DNA from: a virus | Taxonomy: Duplodnaviria; Heunggongvirae; Uroviricota; Caudoviricetes | Virus record (IMG/VR): IMGVR_UViG_2609459847_000005 | Direction: 5' to 3' (one strand) | Length of the DNA: 26,651 bases | Shown here: positions 3,544-26,651 of the stretch, piece after piece | Layout of the letters: every line of letters starts with the position of its first letter | How positions within the stretch are numbered: the first letter of the stretch is position 1 | The notes under the pieces: model-generated | Database searches by the model: none | The model's input: only the letters and a program-made list of their open reading frames with translations | What the model was told of the DNA's origin: nothing | Translations under genes and position numbers: made by a program

Positions 3544-3561
3544 TGTGTGGTAAATGACACA
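3544..3561. promoter_or_regulatory. TGT-N12-ACA dyad, candidate Ogr/B-type late-activator site (P_V position)
   Basis: Sequence TGTgtggtaaatgacACA at 3544..3561 matches the P2/186 late-promoter activator dyad and lies between S and V. Spacing to the V ATG is shorter than expected and the motif is short, so this is weak. Confidence 0.3.
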
Positions 3562-3592
3562 AATACAATTCCAATCAAAGAAAGGTAAAAGA

Positions 3593-4123
3593 ATGAGCCA
3601 TCCAATTGATTATTACGCTATAGAAGAACACGCAAGAATAATTGAGCAATTATGCTGTTCATCTGAATTTTATTTACAGCGTATATATTCCACACAGAAA
3701 GTATATGATGGTTCTATAGTAACTGAATTTGAAATGGAGGAGTTATCGTACAACGGATGGTTGGAATATACCATTAGCAACAATCTTATTAGCCTTTGTA
3801 CAAAACTACGAATTCTCCAAGACACTAGTGAACATGAGTGGAACCCAGATTACTCACCTGAGAAAGAAGCATTTGAAGAACATGAAAATATACTTTTTGT
3901 TATAGATGGTCATGTTAAAGATTCTATACGCGAATGCTGCAATAAAATTATTCACGCATTAAGTTTTGAGTTAACAAAAAAGACCGGCAAAAATGGAATA
4001 AAATATTGGGACGGTTCTATTATTGCTTCTGGGGTTCAAAACAAAAAAAACTGGAAAATTAAAATAGACCTTTTCCCTTTTTGCCAAAGCATAAAAAGTT
4101 ATTTAAGTTTATTAAGAGCGTAA
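3593..4123 (+). CDS. Hypothetical protein (176 aa), AT-rich cargo gene between S and V
   Basis: ORF 3554..4123 (189 aa); preferred start is ATG 3593 preceded by aaaGGtaaaag. It is on the opposite strand to the flanking late genes, strongly AT-rich against a GC-rich backbone, and fills the S-V gap exactly (V start 3497, S stop 4129). No recognisable domain. Confidence 0.65.
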   Translation: MSHPIDYYAIEEHARIIEQLCCSSEFYLQRIYSTQKVYDGSIVTEFEMEELSYNGWLEYTISNNLISLCTKLRILQDTSEHEWNPDYSPEKEAFEEHENILFVIDGHVKDSIRECCNKIIHALSFELTKKTGKNGIKYWDGSIIASGVQNKKNWKIKIDLFPFCQSIKSYLSLLRA

Positions 4124-12517: not shown

Positions 12518-13216
12518 TTATTTGTTTCTTCTTTGTTCACGCCTTGTCTTGGCTTCGATAAGGCGTTGAGGTTCAGTGTAAAGCCGTTCTAAAAAAAGAT
12601 AGGTAAAATCTTCAAGATCCTCAGCAGCAGCTTTATCCAAAATACCTTCATGCGCTCCATCATTTCCGTCATCTTTAACGCATTCAGCTAGTTCCCTTAA
12701 AGCTTCAGGCAGTAGATGATTATCAAATAACCACTCCATTCTTAACCCTAGGCTTCTCCTTATTTTTTGCGCAGGCCCTTGCTCCCCATCAGGAAGAAGT
12801 CCTTTTGTGGCATAATCAAGGCAAAGCCTAAACATGGTTGCTGCTGCATTATAACAACCTATAGCCAAACATTTCGCCCCTTCCTCATATGCACTATTGA
12901 TATGCTCAGGTAAGAACTCTGGTGGCTCCTCTACTGCTAAGTCTGCCGGTGATATAGGCCTAACAACCTCTGCAACTTCCTTTAAGCCGAATATTCCACT
13001 TTCCCAATTATAGCCATCTAAAGTTTTATTTTTCGTTAAAGGTCTGCAAAGAAACATTGTCGTTTTATGACACTCTCGGCAAACACAATAGACCTCGTAC
13101 TCGTATGTTTTACCCCCGCCCAATGCATTGTAAACCCTAGTGCAATTCAGCCCATTAACATCAAACGCTATTTTTTGTGATCCACATCGTGGACAGTCAT
13201 CCACTAACATAACCAT
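12518..13216 (-). CDS. Hypothetical protein (232 aa): N-terminal zinc ribbon plus C-terminal alpha-helical domain (HEPN/DUF4145-like?)
   Basis: Strong GGGAGGAG Shine-Dalgarno before ATG 13216. N-terminus has CPRCGS...C..CVCRECH (Cys4-type ribbon); C-terminal region has GNDGAH (an NxxxH motif) in a predicted helical domain. AT-rich; sits between the Q 3' end and the putative cos site. Confidence 0.75.
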   Translation of the reverse strand: MVMLVDDCPRCGSQKIAFDVNGLNCTRVYNALGGGKTYEYEVYCVCRECHKTTMFLCRPLTKNKTLDGYNWESGIFGLKEVAEVVRPISPADLAVEEPPEFLPEHINSAYEEGAKCLAIGCYNAAATMFRLCLDYATKGLLPDGEQGPAQKIRRSLGLRMEWLFDNHLLPEALRELAECVKDDGNDGAHEGILDKAAAEDLEDFTYLFLERLYTEPQRLIEAKTRREQRRNK

Positions 13217-13317
13217 GTCAATTACTCCTCCCTATGAAAAAAATGAGTTGAAAAATTGAATATTCACGACTTAAAAAGCTAGCCTATTTAACACCATAAT
13301 TTCATTAATTCAACCAT

Positions 13318-13345
13318 GAGCGCGCGCTCGTATCCCCGCCACGCC
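13318..13345. other. Candidate cos site with adjacent 12-bp perfect palindrome
   Basis: Reverse complement of 13327..13345 is GGCGTGGCGGGGATACGAG; the first 13 nt match the 186-type cohesive end as I recall it (GGCGTGGCGGGGAAAGCAT). Palindrome GAGCGCGCGCTC at 13318..13329. Location between Q and the old/tin-equivalent region fits P2-family genome organisation. Confidence 0.5.
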
Positions 13346-13390
13346 TGCCCGCTTTATGTAGTGGTTTTCATGCGCCTGCATGACATAAGC

Positions 13391-13414
13391 AAAAGCCCGC
13401 CATTCCTAGCGGGC
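13391..13414 (-). terminator. Rho-independent terminator candidate for the minus-strand cargo operon
   Basis: Minus strand reads GCCCGC-taggaatg-GCGGGC followed by TTTT; about 90 nt downstream of the 203-aa gene stop. Confidence 0.55.
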
Positions 13415-13505
13415 CTCAGCTAAAACGATCCTCAAACGATCATGCGGATTCATGCGGCATAGACATGCACAATCGCCAAAGCGGGCATCGAGACTTTTTG
13501 GAAAA

Positions 13506-14117
13506 CTACGTAACCACAGTTAATGTGTGCATCCTGTCTCGAATTGCATCACACGTCTCATCAAAAAGCTTGGTGATGGTTGTACGGTTCAACTCTGCCT
13601 CTTTCCAATAATTTTGCCAGTCAAATTCTGGATCGCCATGCTGAAACGATATTGACTCTGAAAGGCATTCCTTCCGGAAACGGTCCAAGATTATATAAAC
13701 CTCTGGTGAGATGAACGGTTTGTTAGACTCAACACTTGTAACAAAAGTATTAAATGCATCGAAAAAAACTTTCAACCTTCTAAATTTTCTCTCTTCAAAT
13801 GGTTCGTTGGGGTCAAAATGATCCAGCGCAGGCCTCAGCTTAAGCACGCTTTCTCTGGTTTCAAACATCGAATTCCAAATGAGACTATATGCTGATAACT
13901 CCTTATCAAAATACGCTTTCGTTACATAAACAGAATTGTCTAACTTAGCCTTTATTCTTTCATTAGTTGCACTCAGTTGTGATTGAAATTCAGCAATATC
14001 TTTGTTTAGCCGCGACTTATATCTTTCTAAATAAACTTTCCCGATCCAAACAAATATGCCAGATGCAACAAAAGACACCCCACCCAACGAAGCCAGAATT
14101 TTAAAGACTAAATCCAT
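13506..14117 (-). CDS. Hypothetical membrane-anchored protein (203 aa)
   Basis: ATG 14117 preceded by AGGTGGGGG; N-terminal TM helix (ILASLGGVSFVASGIFVWIGKVY) followed by a charged, helix-rich soluble domain; AT-rich; no recognisable domain. Confidence 0.75.
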   Translation of the reverse strand: MDLVFKILASLGGVSFVASGIFVWIGKVYLERYKSRLNKDIAEFQSQLSATNERIKAKLDNSVYVTKAYFDKELSAYSLIWNSMFETRESVLKLRPALDHFDPNEPFEERKFRRLKVFFDAFNTFVTSVESNKPFISPEVYIILDRFRKECLSESISFQHGDPEFDWQNYWKEAELNRTTITKLFDETCDAIRDRMHTLTVVT

Positions 14118-14165
14118 TGCGCCCCCACCTGCAAAAATAGTATTCCATTATAAGCTAATACATTT

Positions 14166-14426
14166 TTAATCAAACAGGGAATAATTCGCGTCAACCTCAT
14201 CACTTCTCTGCTCTACCCTGGTGACTTCCATCAAAAACTCCAGGCCGTCATATAGCGAAACGGGGAATTCCAGCTCAAGCCAGAAGCAGTCTTCATAGGT
14301 GCGGCCCAACCAAAAACCTCCGCCACACTCCTTTGGGCGTTGAAAGAAGACCCAGCCGCCAGGGGTAAACCGTTCCAGCACCTGGCCCCGATAAATAATC
14401 TGGTGATTACTGTCTTTTTTACCCAT
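14166..14426 (-). CDS. Hypothetical small protein (86 aa)
   Basis: ORF 14166..14477 starts at TTG; internal ATG at 14426 (MGKKDSNHQIIYRGQ...) preferred. Lies between the DinI-like gene and the TM protein gene. Coding status moderately supported. Confidence 0.5.
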   Translation of the reverse strand: MGKKDSNHQIIYRGQVLERFTPGGWVFFQRPKECGGGFWLGRTYEDCFWLELEFPVSLYDGLEFLMEVTRVEQRSDEVDANYSLFD

Positions 14427-14499
14427 GGCTAACGCCTCGCTACTCTCGTTGTTCAACCTTGCTGACGTCAGAATCAAGTTCTTACATCAGGAACGTTCC

Positions 14500-14733
14500 T
14501 TAGTGCAGCCAGCTGTCGTCTTCCCAAACCTGCTGCATAATTTCCATCACCCGCTTTTTGTCTTCATCAAGCTTTAAGCCACTCAGCTCAACGCCGTTTG
14601 CCGACCCTTTACGGATGCGGATAGCTGTCTTGGGATAGATGGGTTGCAGGTTGCGGTAAAGCTCGGACTCCAGAGCGTCCAGGGTAGACTGGCTAATCTT
14701 CTGCTCTTTATCGATCATTATTTCAATGCGCAT
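14500..14733 (-). CDS. DinI-family protein (Tum-like antirepressor C-terminal module)
   Basis: Start moved to internal ATG 14733 with GAGGTG Shine-Dalgarno; MRIEIMIDKEQKISQSTLDALESELYRNLQPIYPKTAIRIRKGSANGVELSGLKLDEDKKRVMEIMQQVWEDDSW resembles E. coli DinI (MRIEVTIAK...ETWESADDWF). It is downstream of LexA boxes, as for the 186 tum gene. Confidence 0.8.
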   Translation of the reverse strand: MRIEIMIDKEQKISQSTLDALESELYRNLQPIYPKTAIRIRKGSANGVELSGLKLDEDKKRVMEIMQQVWEDDSWLH

Positions 14734-14743
14734 AAAAGTCACC

Positions 14744-14932
14744 TCAGCTGATGACATCCATTGAGCGGTTGTATTCGTGGGTTCTGATTTTTGCCATGAG
14801 TTCATCTGTCAGTTCAGAAACCCACTGCAGGGCCAGCCCCTTCTCTTCATCACTACACTCACTAGCCGCTACAAGCTTAAGAAAAAAATCAATGCGCTGG
14901 AGCTTCAAAGACTCCAAAAAATAGTCCTGCAT
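14744..14932 (-). CDS. Small protein (62 aa) upstream of the DinI-like gene; possible N-terminal part of a split tum-like module
   Basis: ATG 14932 with AGGAGGAA Shine-Dalgarno; first gene downstream of the LexA-box promoter; 11-nt gap to the DinI-like gene. Confidence 0.65.
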   Translation of the reverse strand: MQDYFLESLKLQRIDFFLKLVAASECSDEEKGLALQWVSELTDELMAKIRTHEYNRSMDVIS

Positions 14933-20928: not shown

Positions 20929-21945
20929 ATGACCATCAGAAAACAGCCGAACGGAAAATGGTTGTGTGAGTGCTATCCCAATGGACGCAATGGTAAGCGC
21001 GTGCGTAAGCAATTTGCTACGAAAGGCGAAGCCATTGCTTTTGAAAGCTTCACAATGGAAGAAGTGAATAAAAAACCGTGGTTGGGTGAAAAGGATGATC
21101 GGCGACGCCTATCAGAATTAATTGAGCTTTGGTATTCCCTGTATGGTCAGACACTCGCAGACCCCAAGCGCCTCATGGCGAAACTTAGAATTATCTGTAA
21201 TGGTCTAGGCGACCCCATCGCCTCAGAACTGACAGCCGGTGACTTTACGAAATACCGCGAAGCACGGTTAAAAGGTGACGTTCGTAACGAAGACGGCACA
21301 CTAATGTCGCCAGTAAAACCACGCACGGTGAATCTTGAGCAACGTAACCTATCATCGGTTTTCGGCACATTGAAAAAACTAGGCCACTGGTCAGCACCAA
21401 ATCCTCTCGCCGGGCTGCCAACATTTAAAATCGCTGAGGGGGAACTGGCGTTCCTGACCTCGGAAGAAATTAAACGTCTGCTAGATGCCTGCGCTGATTC
21501 TCAAAACCCCAGTCTGCTTTTGATTGCAAAAATATGCCTGGCCACCGGCGCACGCTGGAGTGAAGCTGAAAACCTGCAGGGCCATCAGTTATCTAAATAC
21601 CGCATCACTTATACCAAGACGAAGGGTAAGAAAAACCGCACCGTGCCGATATCTCAAGATCTGTATGACGAACTCCCCAAGAACAGAGGGAAGCTATTCA
21701 CCCCGTGCAGAAAAGCCTTTGAACGAGCAGTAAAGCGAGCTGGCATCGAGCTGCCAGAGGGCCAATGCACTCACGTGCTACGTCATACATTCGCCAGCCA
21801 TTTTATGATGAATGGCGGAAACATACTGGTGCTGCGCGATATTCTGGGCCATGCCGATATAAAAATGACGATGATTTACGCCCACTTTTCGCCCGATCAC
21901 CTTGAAGATGCGGTAACTAAAAACCCTTTATGCAACTTAAGATAG
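20929..21945 (+). CDS. int: Tyrosine integrase (P2/186 Int family)
   Basis: 338-aa ORF; C-terminal catalytic region with R...HVLRHTFASHFMMNGG...LGHADIKMTMIYAH (RHR-Y tyrosine-recombinase signature); immediately follows cI. Confidence 0.9.
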   Translation: MTIRKQPNGKWLCECYPNGRNGKRVRKQFATKGEAIAFESFTMEEVNKKPWLGEKDDRRRLSELIELWYSLYGQTLADPKRLMAKLRIICNGLGDPIASELTAGDFTKYREARLKGDVRNEDGTLMSPVKPRTVNLEQRNLSSVFGTLKKLGHWSAPNPLAGLPTFKIAEGELAFLTSEEIKRLLDACADSQNPSLLLIAKICLATGARWSEAENLQGHQLSKYRITYTKTKGKKNRTVPISQDLYDELPKNRGKLFTPCRKAFERAVKRAGIELPEGQCTHVLRHTFASHFMMNGGNILVLRDILGHADIKMTMIYAHFSPDHLEDAVTKNPLCNLR

Positions 21946-22260
21946 AGTAACTTATGAAAACAAACTCAAACTATTTACAAATATAATATTCAGCAGGTTA
22001 TCCATTCTCATTTAACTCTTCAGACTGAGTTTAGGTTTTATTTATAGAATAAGATAATTTTTACATCACAAAAAAACCTATAAGCCCTCATCTTTGTTGT
22101 ATAAAAACATCAAAGATGCCACATTCAAAAATAGTAGAAAAGCATAGCATTGCAACATTAAAAAGAAACCAATAAAAAACAGTCATTAGAAAATGAAAAA
22201 AACAAAAACATTTTTTATCGAAGCTTCAGTCTGACTACTAGTTTGACTCTGCAATTAACT

Positions 22261-22294
22261 TTCAAGATGATCAATATTTATTGATCATCTTGAA
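22261..22294. repeat. 34-bp near-perfect inverted repeat with two GATC sites
   Basis: TTCAAGATGATCAATA-tt-TATTGATCATCTTGAA; lies about 30 nt beyond the 3' end of the deaminase gene in the AT-rich spacer between int and the deaminase. Confidence 0.6.
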
Positions 22295-22325
22295 GCTTAC
22301 CTCAGGAAGGATGAGTATAATATTT

Positions 22326-24059
22326 CTACTCAAGGAGATATTCTAACTCATCTTTTATCGGGATAATTTGCTCATAAAGTCGGTGATATGACTTCCCAAT
22401 TGCGCCTCTAAATTGTATTAACTTTGGTGGCTTACTACCTATATTAATAATATGGTCTTGAGCTATACCTGGGTAGGGATCAATAAATACAATTTCAGAT
22501 ATACCTAACTGATAAGCTTTTTTCGCACACAACTCACAGGGACTGGCAGTTGTATACAACTTCCCCCCCAGAACGCCAATACCACCATATTTTGCAAGTT
22601 GTAAAAATGCGTTTTCCTCAGCATGTAATGCACGTGTATGAACTTGATTACCTTTTTTCTCTTTATCAAGATCATTATGTATATCTTTAAAACAATAAGA
22701 TAAGTTCCTGCCTCTATAAATATCACCAGTTTTATCTATCGCCCTAAAATTTAAGAGTTTCTCATTAGCTTTAATTCTGAAAGAACTATTATTTCTCTCA
22801 TAATGACTGTACGTTTTTTCATCAAAATCGTTCATTAGGCCATCTAGAGATCTCATAGAGCAAGGAATCTGACCGTTGGCAACATCATTCCAACCAACTG
22901 ATTTTATTGAATTATCACCATCAGTTACTACAGCTCCCACCTGTCTAGATATACAGCCAGAGTTTAATTTTACCGTATACGCAACTTGCATAACCCTTTC
23001 CATTGCAGTAGGTGTTATCAGACCAGGATGCTTCATCAGTGCGATGTACCACGCTAATTGTGCTTTTAAAATATTGTCATTATCAAATTCATTTTTTGGG
23101 TTAAAAATGTGTATATCTGATAGTTCAATACATTTAGTTACATTTGGATTGGTGAGATGTTTGTAAGAGTTATCACCTTTACCTGACTCTACAGAATCTA
23201 TTTCCTCTATCTGCTTTTCTGAAAACTTATGTAGTTTCCGCAAATAGTTTGTTCGATGTTCATCTGGGGCATTTATTGACATTAAATGAAATGCAGAATA
23301 TCTATCCTTAAAAAATTTTGCCTCATATGGATTTCTAATAGCATCTATGACAATTAATGCGTTATCTCTTTTGCTTTTTCTTATTAATTTAATAACCCTA
23401 TTAATAGTTTCCGGCAAATGAAAAACAGATTTAGGCATAAACTCTTTATCTTCAAAATCGACTTCAATACGCCCACGACGTCTAATTGACTTACCTGCTA
23501 ACTGATAGGCTGAAACATATAAATTTGAGTTTATCTCATTTAGTTCAGCTTTGAATTCTTTAGTAAATTTTCTAACTAACTTCAAAATTGATATAAATTT
23601 ATTAATCGTTTTTTCATCAAACTTCAATTCACTATTATGATCAAGCAAATTCTCAATTACATTTTTAAATCTTGTCAAAATGAGATTATCTGAGAATACA
23701 CCAAAAGTTAATACAATATCTAAATGCTCTTTACTGATAAATTTATTAGATGATAGAATGAATTCAGAAGCTTCCTCAACTGTTAACATCAGAAGATACG
23801 CTGAGATTAGGTCACTCACCTTAATTGAGTAAAAATTTTCCCAGTGATTTTCTGCGAATTTTTTAACTATATTATAACGATGGACATCCAATCCCTTGTA
23901 AAACCCCTGTAATTTACTTACATCAGGGAAGACTGTTTTTTCGTTTTCAAGAATATTAGCTGTTGTTGTGCAACCAGAACCAGTTCGACCTGTCAAACCG
24001 ACTAAAATAAACTGCCCATTTTCAAGGAAAAGCTCACTAACGAATTTTTTTTCTTTCAT
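22326..24059 (-). CDS. P-loop NTPase / dCMP-dCTP deaminase fusion (AvcD/DCD-like nucleotide-depletion defence protein)
   Basis: 577 aa from ATG 24059 (track ORF starts at GTG 24062). N-terminal P-loop region with non-canonical Walker A (GLTGRTGSGCTT, no Lys) and Walker-B-like LIVID. C-terminal cytidine/dCMP deaminase signatures (RQVGAVV...GWN; HAEENA; PCELC zinc-binding motifs). Strongly AT-rich relative to the phage backbone. Confidence 0.8.
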   Translation of the reverse strand: MKEKKFVSELFLENGQFILVGLTGRTGSGCTTTANILENEKTVFPDVSKLQGFYKGLDVHRYNIVKKFAENHWENFYSIKVSDLISAYLLMLTVEEASEFILSSNKFISKEHLDIVLTFGVFSDNLILTRFKNVIENLLDHNSELKFDEKTINKFISILKLVRKFTKEFKAELNEINSNLYVSAYQLAGKSIRRRGRIEVDFEDKEFMPKSVFHLPETINRVIKLIRKSKRDNALIVIDAIRNPYEAKFFKDRYSAFHLMSINAPDEHRTNYLRKLHKFSEKQIEEIDSVESGKGDNSYKHLTNPNVTKCIELSDIHIFNPKNEFDNDNILKAQLAWYIALMKHPGLITPTAMERVMQVAYTVKLNSGCISRQVGAVVTDGDNSIKSVGWNDVANGQIPCSMRSLDGLMNDFDEKTYSHYERNNSSFRIKANEKLLNFRAIDKTGDIYRGRNLSYCFKDIHNDLDKEKKGNQVHTRALHAEENAFLQLAKYGGIGVLGGKLYTTASPCELCAKKAYQLGISEIVFIDPYPGIAQDHIINIGSKPPKLIQFRGAIGKSYHRLYEQIIPIKDELEYLLE

Positions 24060-24254
24060 CACGTCCCACTTATGAATGCAAGAACAATTAGCATATTAAT
24101 TATAATTTATTAACTAATTTTATTCTAGATGCTTGATGTAATGGCGGCACTTTGGCGGCAGAGCATTAAAAACGCGTAAGACGAGCAAATACAAAATAAC
24201 ACTAACACATTGTTTTCAAACATAATCTACTGTTTTTACTATAATAAAAATGGT

Positions 24255-24299
24255 ATGTAGGAATTTCGGACGCGGGTTCAACTCCCGCCAGCTCCACCA
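24255..24299 (+). other. ssrA: 3'-terminal fragment of tmRNA gene ssrA (attachment-site core copy)
   Basis: ATGTAGGAATTTCGGACGCGGGTTCAACTCCCGCCAGCTCCACCA matches the 3' acceptor/T-arm end of E. coli ssrA as recalled; upstream sequence is AT-rich and not ssrA-like, so only the core is present. Confidence 0.7.
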
Positions 24300-24334
24300 A
24301 TTTTTGATATATTGAAGTTCAGTGAAGTCTATCA

Positions 24335-24367
24335 AGCCCGCATGGAACCAGCCTTGCGGGCTTTTTT
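24335..24367 (+). terminator. Rho-independent terminator downstream of the ssrA 3' fragment
   Basis: AGCCCGCA-tggaaccagcct-TGCGGGCT followed by TTTTTT. Confidence 0.6.
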
Positions 24368-24465
24368 ACGTCTATAGTAGTCTACCGAGAATTGCTAGAA
24401 TCTACTCGTTATGGCACCCTTTTTGGGACCCAACACAAAGGGTCCAAAACATGAGGGTCCCAAAC

Positions 24466-25695
24466 ATGGCAAAAATCGCTAAGAAGCTCACTGACACTGA
24501 AATCAAAAGCACCAAACCTGCCGAGAAAGAGGTTAACCTTTTTGACGGCGATGGTTTGCTCCTGCGAATCGCCCCCTTAGCGAAGGGAGGAAAGAAAAAT
24601 TGGTATTTCAGATATGCAGTGCCTGTGACCAAAAAGCGAACTAAGGTGAGCTTAGGAACCTATCCTCACCTTACACTTGCGAAGGCACGAGCTTTACGTG
24701 ATGAGTACTTGTCGTTGCTTGCAAATGGTATAGACCCACAAGTTCATAACACCCACAAAGCCAATGCCCTTAAGGATGCAACGGAACATACATTTCAAGC
24801 AGTAGCCAAGAAGTGGCTTGATGAGAAAGTCAAAACGTCAGGCATCTCCCAGGATCATGCTAACGACATCTGGCGAAGCCTAGAGAGAAATATCTTTCCA
24901 ACGTTGGGTGATACCCCCATTAAGGAGATTCGCCCTAAAATGCTTAAACAGCATTTAGACCCCATAGAAAAACGAGGTGTCCTTGAAACACTTCGCCGCG
25001 TCATATCCCGCCTGAATGAAATTTTCCGCTATGCAGCAACAGAAGAACTCATAGAATTCAATCCGGCTGACAACCTGGGGCAACGGTTCAGCAAGCCAAA
25101 AAAACAGAATATGCCAGCATTACCCCCTTCCGAACTCCCCCGCTTCCTGGTTGCTCTAAACAATGCTTCTATCCGTTTAGAAACAAGGCTACTGATTGAG
25201 TGGCAACTTCTCACATGGGTTCGCCCTGGTGAAGCTGTTCGCACAAGATGGTCAGATATTGATATAGAAACCAGCATGTGGAACATCCCGGCGGAGTTTA
25301 TGAAAATGAAGAAGCCTCACAAAGTTCCACTGAGCAAAGAATCTTTGCGAGTCTTGGATTCAATGAAAGCCATCAGCGGGCATAGAGAGTGGGTTTTTCC
25401 CAGTATCAAAGCTCCACTCAATCACATGCATGAACAAACAGCTAATGCGGCTATAATCCGTATGGGCTTCGGAGGTGAGCTTGTAGCTCATGGTATGCGA
25501 TCAATCGCTAGAACGGCGGCTGAGGAGTGTGGCAAGTTTAGAACTGATGTCTTAGAAGCCGCCCTTGCCCACTCGAAAAAAGATGAAATAATTGCAGCCT
25601 ACAATCGTGCAGAGTATCTCACAGAACGTGTGGTTCTCATGCAATGGTGGAGTGACTATGTTTCGTCTCAAAAATACAAAGTTATTGCCGCATAA
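24466..25695 (+). CDS. intA: Tyrosine integrase, CP4-57 IntA / P4-family (ssrA-targeting type)
   Basis: ORF 24322..25695; start moved to internal ATG 24466 (MAKIAKKLTDTEIKSTKPAEKEVNLFDGDGLLLRI...) because the upstream part spans the terminator hairpin; N-terminal pattern typical of P4-family integrases (DUF4102-like); adjacency to the ssrA 3' end as in CP4-57. Confidence 0.8.
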   Translation: MAKIAKKLTDTEIKSTKPAEKEVNLFDGDGLLLRIAPLAKGGKKNWYFRYAVPVTKKRTKVSLGTYPHLTLAKARALRDEYLSLLANGIDPQVHNTHKANALKDATEHTFQAVAKKWLDEKVKTSGISQDHANDIWRSLERNIFPTLGDTPIKEIRPKMLKQHLDPIEKRGVLETLRRVISRLNEIFRYAATEELIEFNPADNLGQRFSKPKKQNMPALPPSELPRFLVALNNASIRLETRLLIEWQLLTWVRPGEAVRTRWSDIDIETSMWNIPAEFMKMKKPHKVPLSKESLRVLDSMKAISGHREWVFPSIKAPLNHMHEQTANAAIIRMGFGGELVAHGMRSIARTAAEECGKFRTDVLEAALAHSKKDEIIAAYNRAEYLTERVVLMQWWSDYVSSQKYKVIAA

Positions 25696-26069: not shown

Positions 26070-26651
26070 GGTAATGACTCCAACTTATTGATAGTGTTTT
26101 ATGTTCAGATAATGCCCGATGACTTTGTCATGCAGCTCCACCGATTTTGAGAACGACAGCGACTTCCGTCCCAGCCGTGCCAGGTGCTGCCTCAGATTCA
26201 GGTTATGCCGCTCAATTCGCTGAGTGTAACGCTTGCTGATTACGTGCAGCTTTCCCTTCAGGCGGGATTCATACAGCGGCCAGCCATCCGTCATCCATAT
26301 CACCACGTCAAAGGGTGACAGCAGGCTCATAAGACGCCCCAGCGTCGCCATAGTGCGTTCACCGAATACGTGCGCAACAACCGTCTTCCGGAGCCTGTCA
26401 TACGCGTAAAACAGCCAGCGCTGGCGCGATTTAGCCCCGACGTATCCCCACTGTTCGTCCATTTCCGCGCAGACGATGACGTCACTGCCCGGCTGTATGC
26501 GCGAGGTTACCGACTGCGGCCTGAGTTTTTTAAATGGCGGAAAATCGTGTTGAGGCCAACGCCCATAATGCGGGCGGTTGCCCGGCATCCAACGCCATTC
26601 ATGGCCATATCAATGATTTTCTGGTGCGTACCGGGTTGAGAAGCGGTGTAA
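26070..26651 (-). mobile_element. IS1 insertion sequence (partial; continues beyond window end)
   Basis: Sequence from 26070 (GGTAATGACTCCAACTTATTGATAGTGTTTTATGTTCAGATAATGCCCGATGAC...) matches the IS1 right inverted repeat and body as recalled; contains insB. Confidence 0.9.
26085..26588 (-). CDS. insB: IS1 transposase InsB (C-terminal part of InsAB')
   Basis: 167-aa [53 protein letters not shown]... recognised as IS1 InsB. Confidence 0.9.

Follow-up and report, generated by a model that had tools for sequence, protein, structure and literature searches.

The dCTP deaminase (DCD) of Escherichia coli AW1.7 is the reference enzyme, characterised biochemically, among the anti-phage proteins that join a kinase-like domain to a zinc-dependent deaminase. 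Within 5 min of T7 infection the pools of dCTP, dCDP and dCMP run down while that of dUMP increases (Tal et al.). Substitutions in the "kinase" motif (G29A, C30A) or in the deaminase domain (C370A, C401A) abolish both defence and dCTP depletion, and T7 escape mutants map to the RNA polymerase modifiers gp5.7 and gp0.7 (Tal et al.). The same authors synthesised the gene of E. coli U09 (IMG gene 2677870675, 577 amino acids, marked "Validated experimentally") with its native promoter, in a construct that holds the reverse complement of the ssrA 3' end; it protected strain MG1655 from several phages. In the AvcD-AvcI systems (DcdV-DifV) of Vibrio cholerae VSP-1 and of plasmid p58 from enterotoxigenic E. 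coli (ETEC) H10407, the AvcI RNA inhibits AvcD and decays once phage infection halts host transcription, an arrangement classed as a type III toxin-antitoxin (Hsueh et al.). AvcI (DifV) lies immediately 5' of avcD, is co-oriented and co-transcribed with it and measures about 150-300 nt, with a minimal length of 152-174 nt (Hsueh et al., bioRxiv version); these RNAs show no sequence conservation between homologues (Hsueh et al.). In a 2026 survey (PMC13586616) the int-att region of P2-like prophages counts among the minor hotspots for defence, accounting for 3% of P2 systems. Here we analyse a gene of this kind at just such a junction, in a 26,651-nt stretch of viral DNA (IMG/VR record IMGVR_UViG_2609459847_000005, hereafter the window). 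We conclude that it very probably encodes a functional anti-phage dCTP deaminase of the 577-residue DCD/AvcD subtype, carried as int-attP cargo of a 186/Fels-2-like (Peduoviridae) prophage at ssrA.

The open reading frame (ORF) occupies 22326..24062 on the minus strand and encodes 578 amino acids from a GTG start. An ATG one codon further in yields a 577-residue protein (22326..24059, stop codon TAG at 22326-22328), in agreement with the length of RefSeq entry WP_032248869.1. A preliminary description of this DNA, made from the sequence alone, had assigned the protein to the AvcD/DCD type and proposed a comparison with hidden Markov models, which bore the assignment out. The curated NCBIfam equivalog NF041025, "anti-phage dCTP deaminase", was matched over the whole model (positions 1-437 of 437) with 425.5 bits against a cutoff of 400 (E 2.3e-127); two tested proteins, those of AW1.7 and ETEC AvcD, scored 449.2 and 470.3 bits. 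The PADLOC dCTPase model PDLC02373 gave 484 bits (E 1.9e-145), Pfam dCMP_cyt_deam_1 (PF00383) 54 bits (E 1.6e-14), and phrog_8118 a full-length match. RefSeq already gives the product the name "anti-phage dCTP deaminase" in two E. coli strains, NCTC9038 and E47, both of which have a 100% identical gene.

Tal et al. admitted to the family chains of more than 350 residues with both domains in one polypeptide, and our 577-residue protein is of this kind. It also has the other marks of the family, a kinase-like N-terminal domain with the G29/C30 nucleotide-binding motif and a C-terminal zinc deaminase with HAE, PCxxC and the equivalents of C370 and C401. On its sequence it is a member of a DCD subtype of 577 residues, apart from the AvcD subtype of about 530.

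The N-terminal P-loop nucleotide-kinase-like domain spans approximately residues 1-340 (23040..24059, minus strand) and the C-terminal zinc-dependent dCMP/cytidine deaminase domain approximately residues 341-577 (22329..23039, minus strand). Both folds were confirmed; a solved full-length structure of AvcD or DCD was found neither by sequence nor by fold. The zinc deaminase core read from the sequence in the preliminary description was located precisely, with coordinates verified by translation: HAE at residues 479-481 (22617..22625, minus strand), with His479 as zinc ligand and Glu481 as proton shuttle, and PCELC at residues 507-511 (22527..22541, minus strand), with Cys508 and Cys511 binding zinc. 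The proposed check, whether these motifs fall on catalytic positions, came out in favour: in a Protein Data Bank sequence search they aligned with His104/Glu106 and Cys132/Cys135 of T4 dCMP deaminase (Cd, 1vq2). HAE was invariant in all 79 homologous loci and PCxxC was present in every aligned homologue. Cys369 (codon 22953-22955) and Cys400 (codon 22860-22862), which delimit a span at 22860..22955 on the minus strand and correspond to C370 and C401 of AW1.7, aligned with Cys19 and Cys49 of T4 Cd and were invariant in alignments of both 34 homologues and 79 loci. Relative to T4 Cd, the C-terminal domain carries an insertion of about 70 residues.

The P-loop, GLTGRTGSGCTT, lies at residues 21-32 (23964..23999, minus strand, by translation), and Cys30 takes the place of the canonical Walker A lysine, as the earlier reading of a lysine-less P-loop had it. 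Because the motif GRTGSGCTT does not conform to the canonical Walker A definition GxxxxGK[ST], real kinase activity is doubtful. None of 34 homologues, reaching down to 58% identity, departed from the stretch GLTGRTGSGC. Across the 79 loci, drawn from different species and reaching down to 41% identity, the lysine position was occupied by Cys in 78 and by Ser in one. V. cholerae AvcD also has no lysine here, its Walker A mutant being S52K (Hsueh et al., bioRxiv version). The cysteine-for-lysine P-loop is a signature of the family and is required for function; it is not peculiar to this protein. The domain has a kinase-like fold, yet its capacity for phosphotransfer is doubtful, and it is most likely a nucleotide-binding or regulatory module, not a true kinase.

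Among tested enzymes, that of AW1.7 aligned with the protein over its full length at 72% identity and 85% similarity, with an identical P-loop, and all four residues mutated in AW1.7 are present here as G29, C30, C369 and C400. The link to U09 came from DNA: the native-promoter construct of Tal et al. matched window positions 24301-24063 at 235 of 239 nucleotides (98%), up to the start codon and with the ssrA core included. Given this upstream match, the common length of 577 residues and the validation of U09, we therefore take the window locus to be the same as that of the cloned, defending U09 gene. E. coli alleles of the gene differ by at most 2.5%.

The genomic setting is that of a cargo gene. 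The prophage tyrosine integrase (338 residues, P2/186/Fels-2 type; 20929..21945, plus strand; Pfam Int_N and Phage_integrase) shows about 84-85% nucleotide identity to the int genes of Fels-2, SEN8 and Cartapus, and the deaminase is encoded on the opposite strand, as the preliminary description had stated. Between the int stop codon and the phage attP arm lies an AT-rich cassette of 2.19 kb (21946..24133, no strand assigned) with a GC fraction of 0.316, compared with 0.518 for the remaining prophage; measured to the att core the insert is 2.31 kb, matching the 2.3 kb originally described. The arm itself (24134..24254, no strand assigned) is 82-88% identical to that of Fels-2-like phages without a deaminase and makes up most of the upstream region of the deaminase gene. 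It leads into the 47-bp att core (24255..24301, plus strand), which is identical to the 3' end of ssrA (tmRNA) by Rfam and by mapping of the Fels-2 attP, and which forms attR. The core occurs once in the window and was matched in all E. coli genomes. Rfam placed a tmRNA 3' fragment at 24230-24299, and ARAGORN found no intact tmRNA in the window; an Rfam match to IsrM at 24290-24367 was dismissed as the ssrA terminator region.

Homology to Fels-2, SEN8 and MLG42 through int ended at 21926 and that to the Cartapus int at 21940, and it resumed at 24134-24141, continuing to the att core. In Fels-2, SEN8 and MLG42 the attP arm begins 3 nt past the int stop. P2 has about 79 nt and no gene between the int stop and its attP core, and its P' arm reaches into the end of int, so the remark that P2 has no gene at this place was correct. 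Because the flanking homology resumes at 24134-24141 and the slot is empty in these relatives, the deaminase gene belongs to a cargo cassette within the mobilised phage genome. The cassette thus sits where the published hotspot is defined, between int and att and inside the mobilised genome, with an arm homologous to the attP of Fels-2, SEN8 and Cartapus. The proposal of a defence moron at the int-att junction is upheld by this pattern of a slot without cargo in Fels-2, SEN8, MLG42 and P2 and with a different cargo in Cartapus.

The gene is rare in E. coli: the allele occurred in 20 of 5,426 complete genomes, conserved at 97.5-100%, and in all 20 carriers the int-att junction was occupied; approximately 18 further E. 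coli genomes carry paralogues at 67-74%. Citrobacter and Siccibacter prophages keep the arrangement, with deaminases 89% identical. Among 50,697 deposited phage genome records no close homologue was found, despite the full-length PHROG match; the best reached 27% identity. Distant relatives (25-27% identity) were present in only four records, namely Burkholderia phage phiE094 twice (MW072790.1 and NC_055911.1, 32378-33223) and two human-faecal phage contigs. All copies of the 577-residue subtype that were seen lay in prophages, islands or plasmids, among them a Pantoea plasmid (71%).

The family assignment, the intact catalytic and P-loop residues, both folds, the orthology with the U09 locus and the cargo status are the parts of a mechanism that our data supply, and the work on AW1.7, U09 and AvcD contributes dCTP depletion, defence, the need for both domains and the connection with transcription shut-off. 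Put together, a lysogen would express the enzyme from a cassette promoter, presumably the one with TATAAT at 24104-24099, and the enzyme would stay latent in uninfected cells. Its trigger would be superinfection by a lytic phage that puts a stop to host transcription. The C-terminal zinc deaminase, acting through His479, Glu481, Cys508 and Cys511, would then turn dCTP, dCDP and dCMP into deoxyuridine nucleotides, so that dCTP would be gone in minutes and replication of the invading phage DNA would stall. The enzyme would also need its N-terminal kinase-fold domain and the Cys-containing P-loop there, most likely for nucleotide binding or regulation. The promoter, the latency in this particular lysogen and the nature of the off-switch are suppositions of ours; for the last, a short-lived inhibitor is our best guess.

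Several points weigh against reading the locus in this way. The experiments concern relatives, and both dCTP depletion and phage protection by this allele are inferred from locus orthology; identity of the protein to that of U09 is in turn inferred from locus, length and leader. AvcD homologues require an AvcI RNA from the DNA directly upstream (Hsueh et al.), and the upstream DNA here offers little that resembles one: only about 75 nt (24063-24133) are specific to the cassette, the remainder being attP arm and core common to deaminase-free phages. A promoter scan at standard stringency found nothing in the leader. The 241-nt leader folded no better than its shuffled versions (z +0.20). Rfam, at E<=1, matched nothing in it other than the att-core fragments of tmRNA and IsrM, and blastn-short detected no similarity between the leader and the upstream regions of AW1.7 and ETEC.

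These points bear most directly on the alternative that fares best, which refines the reading of a functional DCD-type defence enzyme and does not replace it. The locus might be a complete type III toxin-antitoxin of the AvcID kind, in which an AvcI-like RNA made from the leader of about 240 nt (24063-24300, minus strand) binds the deaminase and holds it off until phage-imposed transcription shut-off lets the labile RNA decay and frees the enzyme. As AvcI is unconserved in sequence, missing similarity does not exclude it. Upstream of ETEC avcD an element of 186 nt stops 12 nt short of the start codon, and in 69 homologous loci the upstream gap had a median of 256 nt, gaps of 200-500 nt being common, although this survey rests on mechanically called ORFs and shows only that room for an upstream element is common. 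The Yersinia pekkanenii locus (L015) and AW1.7 have about 215 nt upstream in common and nothing downstream, which suggests a mobile upstream segment; three AW1.7-type loci share the whole island and are hence uninformative on upstream homology. Moreover, the working U09 construct took in the whole leader. Such an RNA has room in the roughly 240 nt between the gene and the far end of the att core, but about 165 nt of this is attP arm and core, and 24134-24301 is common to deaminase-free phages of the Fels-2 type.

The other signals of the leader are no more encouraging for an AvcI-like RNA. The small-ORF listing was negative or uninformative on this point. A lenient hexamer scan gave the candidate -10 TATAAT (24099..24104, minus strand), a prediction accompanied by a weak -35 TAGAAT at a 17-nt spacer, with a predicted 5' untranslated region of about 30 nt and with the -10 only about 40 nt from the ATG. 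The AW1.7 construct still defended with just 83 nt upstream of its ATG (Tal et al.), and the ETEC AvcD whose antitoxin serves as the model is only 26% identical. Because the known RNAs are unconserved, upstream gaps are common and the Yersinia and AW1.7 loci share upstream DNA, while the leader signals are negative, we leave an AvcI-like RNA from this leader as a tentative idea, and the complete AvcID arrangement likewise as a possibility with the balance of probability against it.

A different departure from the AvcD scheme, which we consider unlikely, would be that the 577-residue DCD subtype, this copy included, works without an AvcI-type RNA antitoxin and is silenced and triggered by another route. 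One possibility is that the Cys-containing P-loop domain senses nucleotide or redox state. Another is a repressor that ties expression to the lysogenic state by binding a 34-bp AT-rich imperfect palindrome, AATTAGCATATTAATTATAATTTATTAACTAATT (24086-24119), which overlaps the only good -10 upstream of the deaminase gene; the palindrome could be such an operator or mere low-complexity AT-rich DNA. If this scheme were true, the AvcD/DCD family would comprise two mechanistically distinct regulatory classes.

The remaining alternatives question the defensive function itself. It is highly improbable that the gene encodes a phage nucleotide-metabolism enzyme of the T4 Cd or PBCV-1 bi-DCD type that provides dUMP for dTTP in the prophage's own lytic growth. 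The C-terminal domain is indeed nearest to phage and cellular dCMP deaminases in sequence and fold comparison, and the protein gave weak matches to PHROG dCMP-deaminase families. However, the ComEB/dCMP-deaminase equivalog TIGR02571 scored 36.4 bits against a cutoff of 219.45, and the family model and the kinase-like N-terminal domain are those of defence enzymes. The coding strand is the one opposite int, the accessory slot is AT-rich and its counterparts in close relatives are empty, P2-like phages bring no further nucleotide-metabolism genes in this window, and close relatives of the protein deplete dCTP and block phages (Tal et al.). That the gene is an inactive relic is scarcely credible: a degenerate Walker A motif and decaying surroundings, with a pseudogene remnant of a 208-residue protein gene beside it and a prophage short of tail genes in NCTC9038, would fit such a reading, but the reading frame is unbroken and can be aligned with AW1.7 from one end to the other, no catalytic residue is missing, the P-loop cysteine is found in 78 of 79 loci and its substitution in C30A kills AW1.7 activity, and the allele is conserved at 97.5-100% in 20 genomes.

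The rest of the cassette is small. The decayed remnant (21953..22164, plus strand), from which the start codon has been lost and which has three in-frame stops, derives from a gene for a 208-residue predicted membrane protein and was recognised by tblastn over residues 3-61 (44% identity, E 7e-7). The intact gene stands between int and the deaminase gene in Citrobacter and Siccibacter (L009 2108-2734; L011 6874-7500), belongs to phrog_21256 (function unknown) and has no Pfam match. It is possibly a second piece of cargo, or else it may serve as a partner that the deaminase can do without here. Nothing in the Citrobacter and Siccibacter loci corresponds to the segment 22165-22325. Within this segment, a repeat search found an inverted repeat with 21-bp arms, 90% complementary (22256..22299, no strand assigned), at about 27 nt beyond the deaminase stop. 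It might form a 3' hairpin or act as a terminator, though it has no T-run, and the terminator scan did not call it. An Rfam match to mir-81 at 22242-22312 corresponds to this 3' hairpin and was dismissed.

The other prophage genes are 186/Fels-2-like Peduoviridae genes (CI, Apl/Rha, CII, Fil, gpA, portal, terminase, capsid, lysis and tail). At the P2 gpA-gpQ defence hotspot beside the portal gene lie three ORFs (12518-14477, minus strand), a possible second defence cargo of the prophage. The one at 12518-13216 encodes a DUF4145 protein (phrog_1305) with a weak PADLOC PD-T7-4 match (E 1.2e-6); the other two, of 203 and 103 residues, are of unknown function (phrog_26391 and phrog_2100), and a DinI-like gene follows at 14500-14805. 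An ORF of 189 residues (3554-4123, plus strand; phrog_18838, function unknown) lies on the opposite strand amid baseplate and tail-morphogenesis genes, a position consistent with the accessory hotspot described for the tail region of P2-like phages; it had no Pfam or PADLOC match.

Right after the att core comes a P4-type integrase (24322-25695, plus strand; Arm-DNA-bind_3, Phage_int_M and Phage_integrase), followed by an IS1 transposase (26085-26588, minus strand); the window therefore ends in a tandem array of elements at ssrA. At the equivalent place strain E47 carries an entire P4-like satellite, whose own hotspot houses a SIR2-family gene (L003 22159-31905), and in NCTC9038 ISEc52 interrupts the P4-type integrase. 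On its left side the window agrees with E47 and not with NCTC9038. The NCTC9038 prophage copy (L001 2286-3172 and 5224-5756) is defective as annotated, with most tail genes from baseplate J to gpU missing and several head genes reduced to pseudogenes. Its deaminase gene is still 100% identical, so here the defence gene has outlived the phage.

In conclusion, this gene is already known at every level: its family, a tested ortholog, its database name and its hotspot. The preliminary description had spoken of an already described family, and the case proved stronger than that, as the allele type itself has been tested and named by RefSeq and its hotspot has been published (PMC13586616). The lysogen gains one known nucleotide-depletion defence, and otherwise the value of the analysis lies in correct annotation. 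The Fels-2/186-like int-attP slot exchanges defence cargo, with the deaminase here, a RES-domain gene in Cartapus and nothing in Fels-2. Wider interest is regulatory only: the 577-residue subtype defends with 83 nt upstream in AW1.7, whereas the AvcD subtype needs an RNA antitoxin of 150-300 nt, and compact prophage-borne copies such as this one are convenient material for asking how the DCD subtype is kept off.

Set beside the known systems, the locus stands closest to that of E. coli U09, with which it has in common a protein length of 577 residues, the genomic junction and the 239 bp upstream including the ssrA-derived att core; the two differ in the DNA beyond the core, as the neighbouring element is a different one. 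The AW1.7 DCD has the identical P-loop GLTGRTGSGCTTTANILE, HAE, PCELC, both cysteines mutated by Tal et al. and the NF041025 match, but its element is a tRNA-Phe island beside another integrase and not a P2-like prophage, its upstream DNA is unrelated, and the proteins are offset by a one-residue indel. In Escherichia phage Cartapus the same slot, right after the stop of a 338-residue int and ahead of the attP arm, is filled by a gene for a 401-residue RES-domain (NAD+-binding) protein on the int strand (L004 2798-4003), a candidate for a different defence or toxin cargo, whereas the window has the deaminase on the opposite strand together with the pseudogene remnant. AvcD-AvcI shares the two-domain architecture, the curated family, the family table of Tal et al., the chemistry (deoxycytidine to deoxyuridine nucleotides) and activation by loss of host transcription. 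With NF041025 common to it and ETEC AvcD, our protein is an AvcD-type deaminase in the sense of AvcID, but the deep subtype differs: the 26% identity to ETEC AvcD is confined to residues 228-572, the P-loop reads GFAGCGMKT in ETEC and has Ser in V. cholerae, AvcD has about 530 residues against 577, and it has its own defined upstream small RNA antitoxin where none is recognisable here. T4 Cd, the cyanophage S-TIM5 enzyme and PBCV-1 bi-DCD, in contrast, are single-domain proteins of 130-190 residues without the kinase-like domain and without the insertion of about 70 residues, and their role is nucleotide supply.

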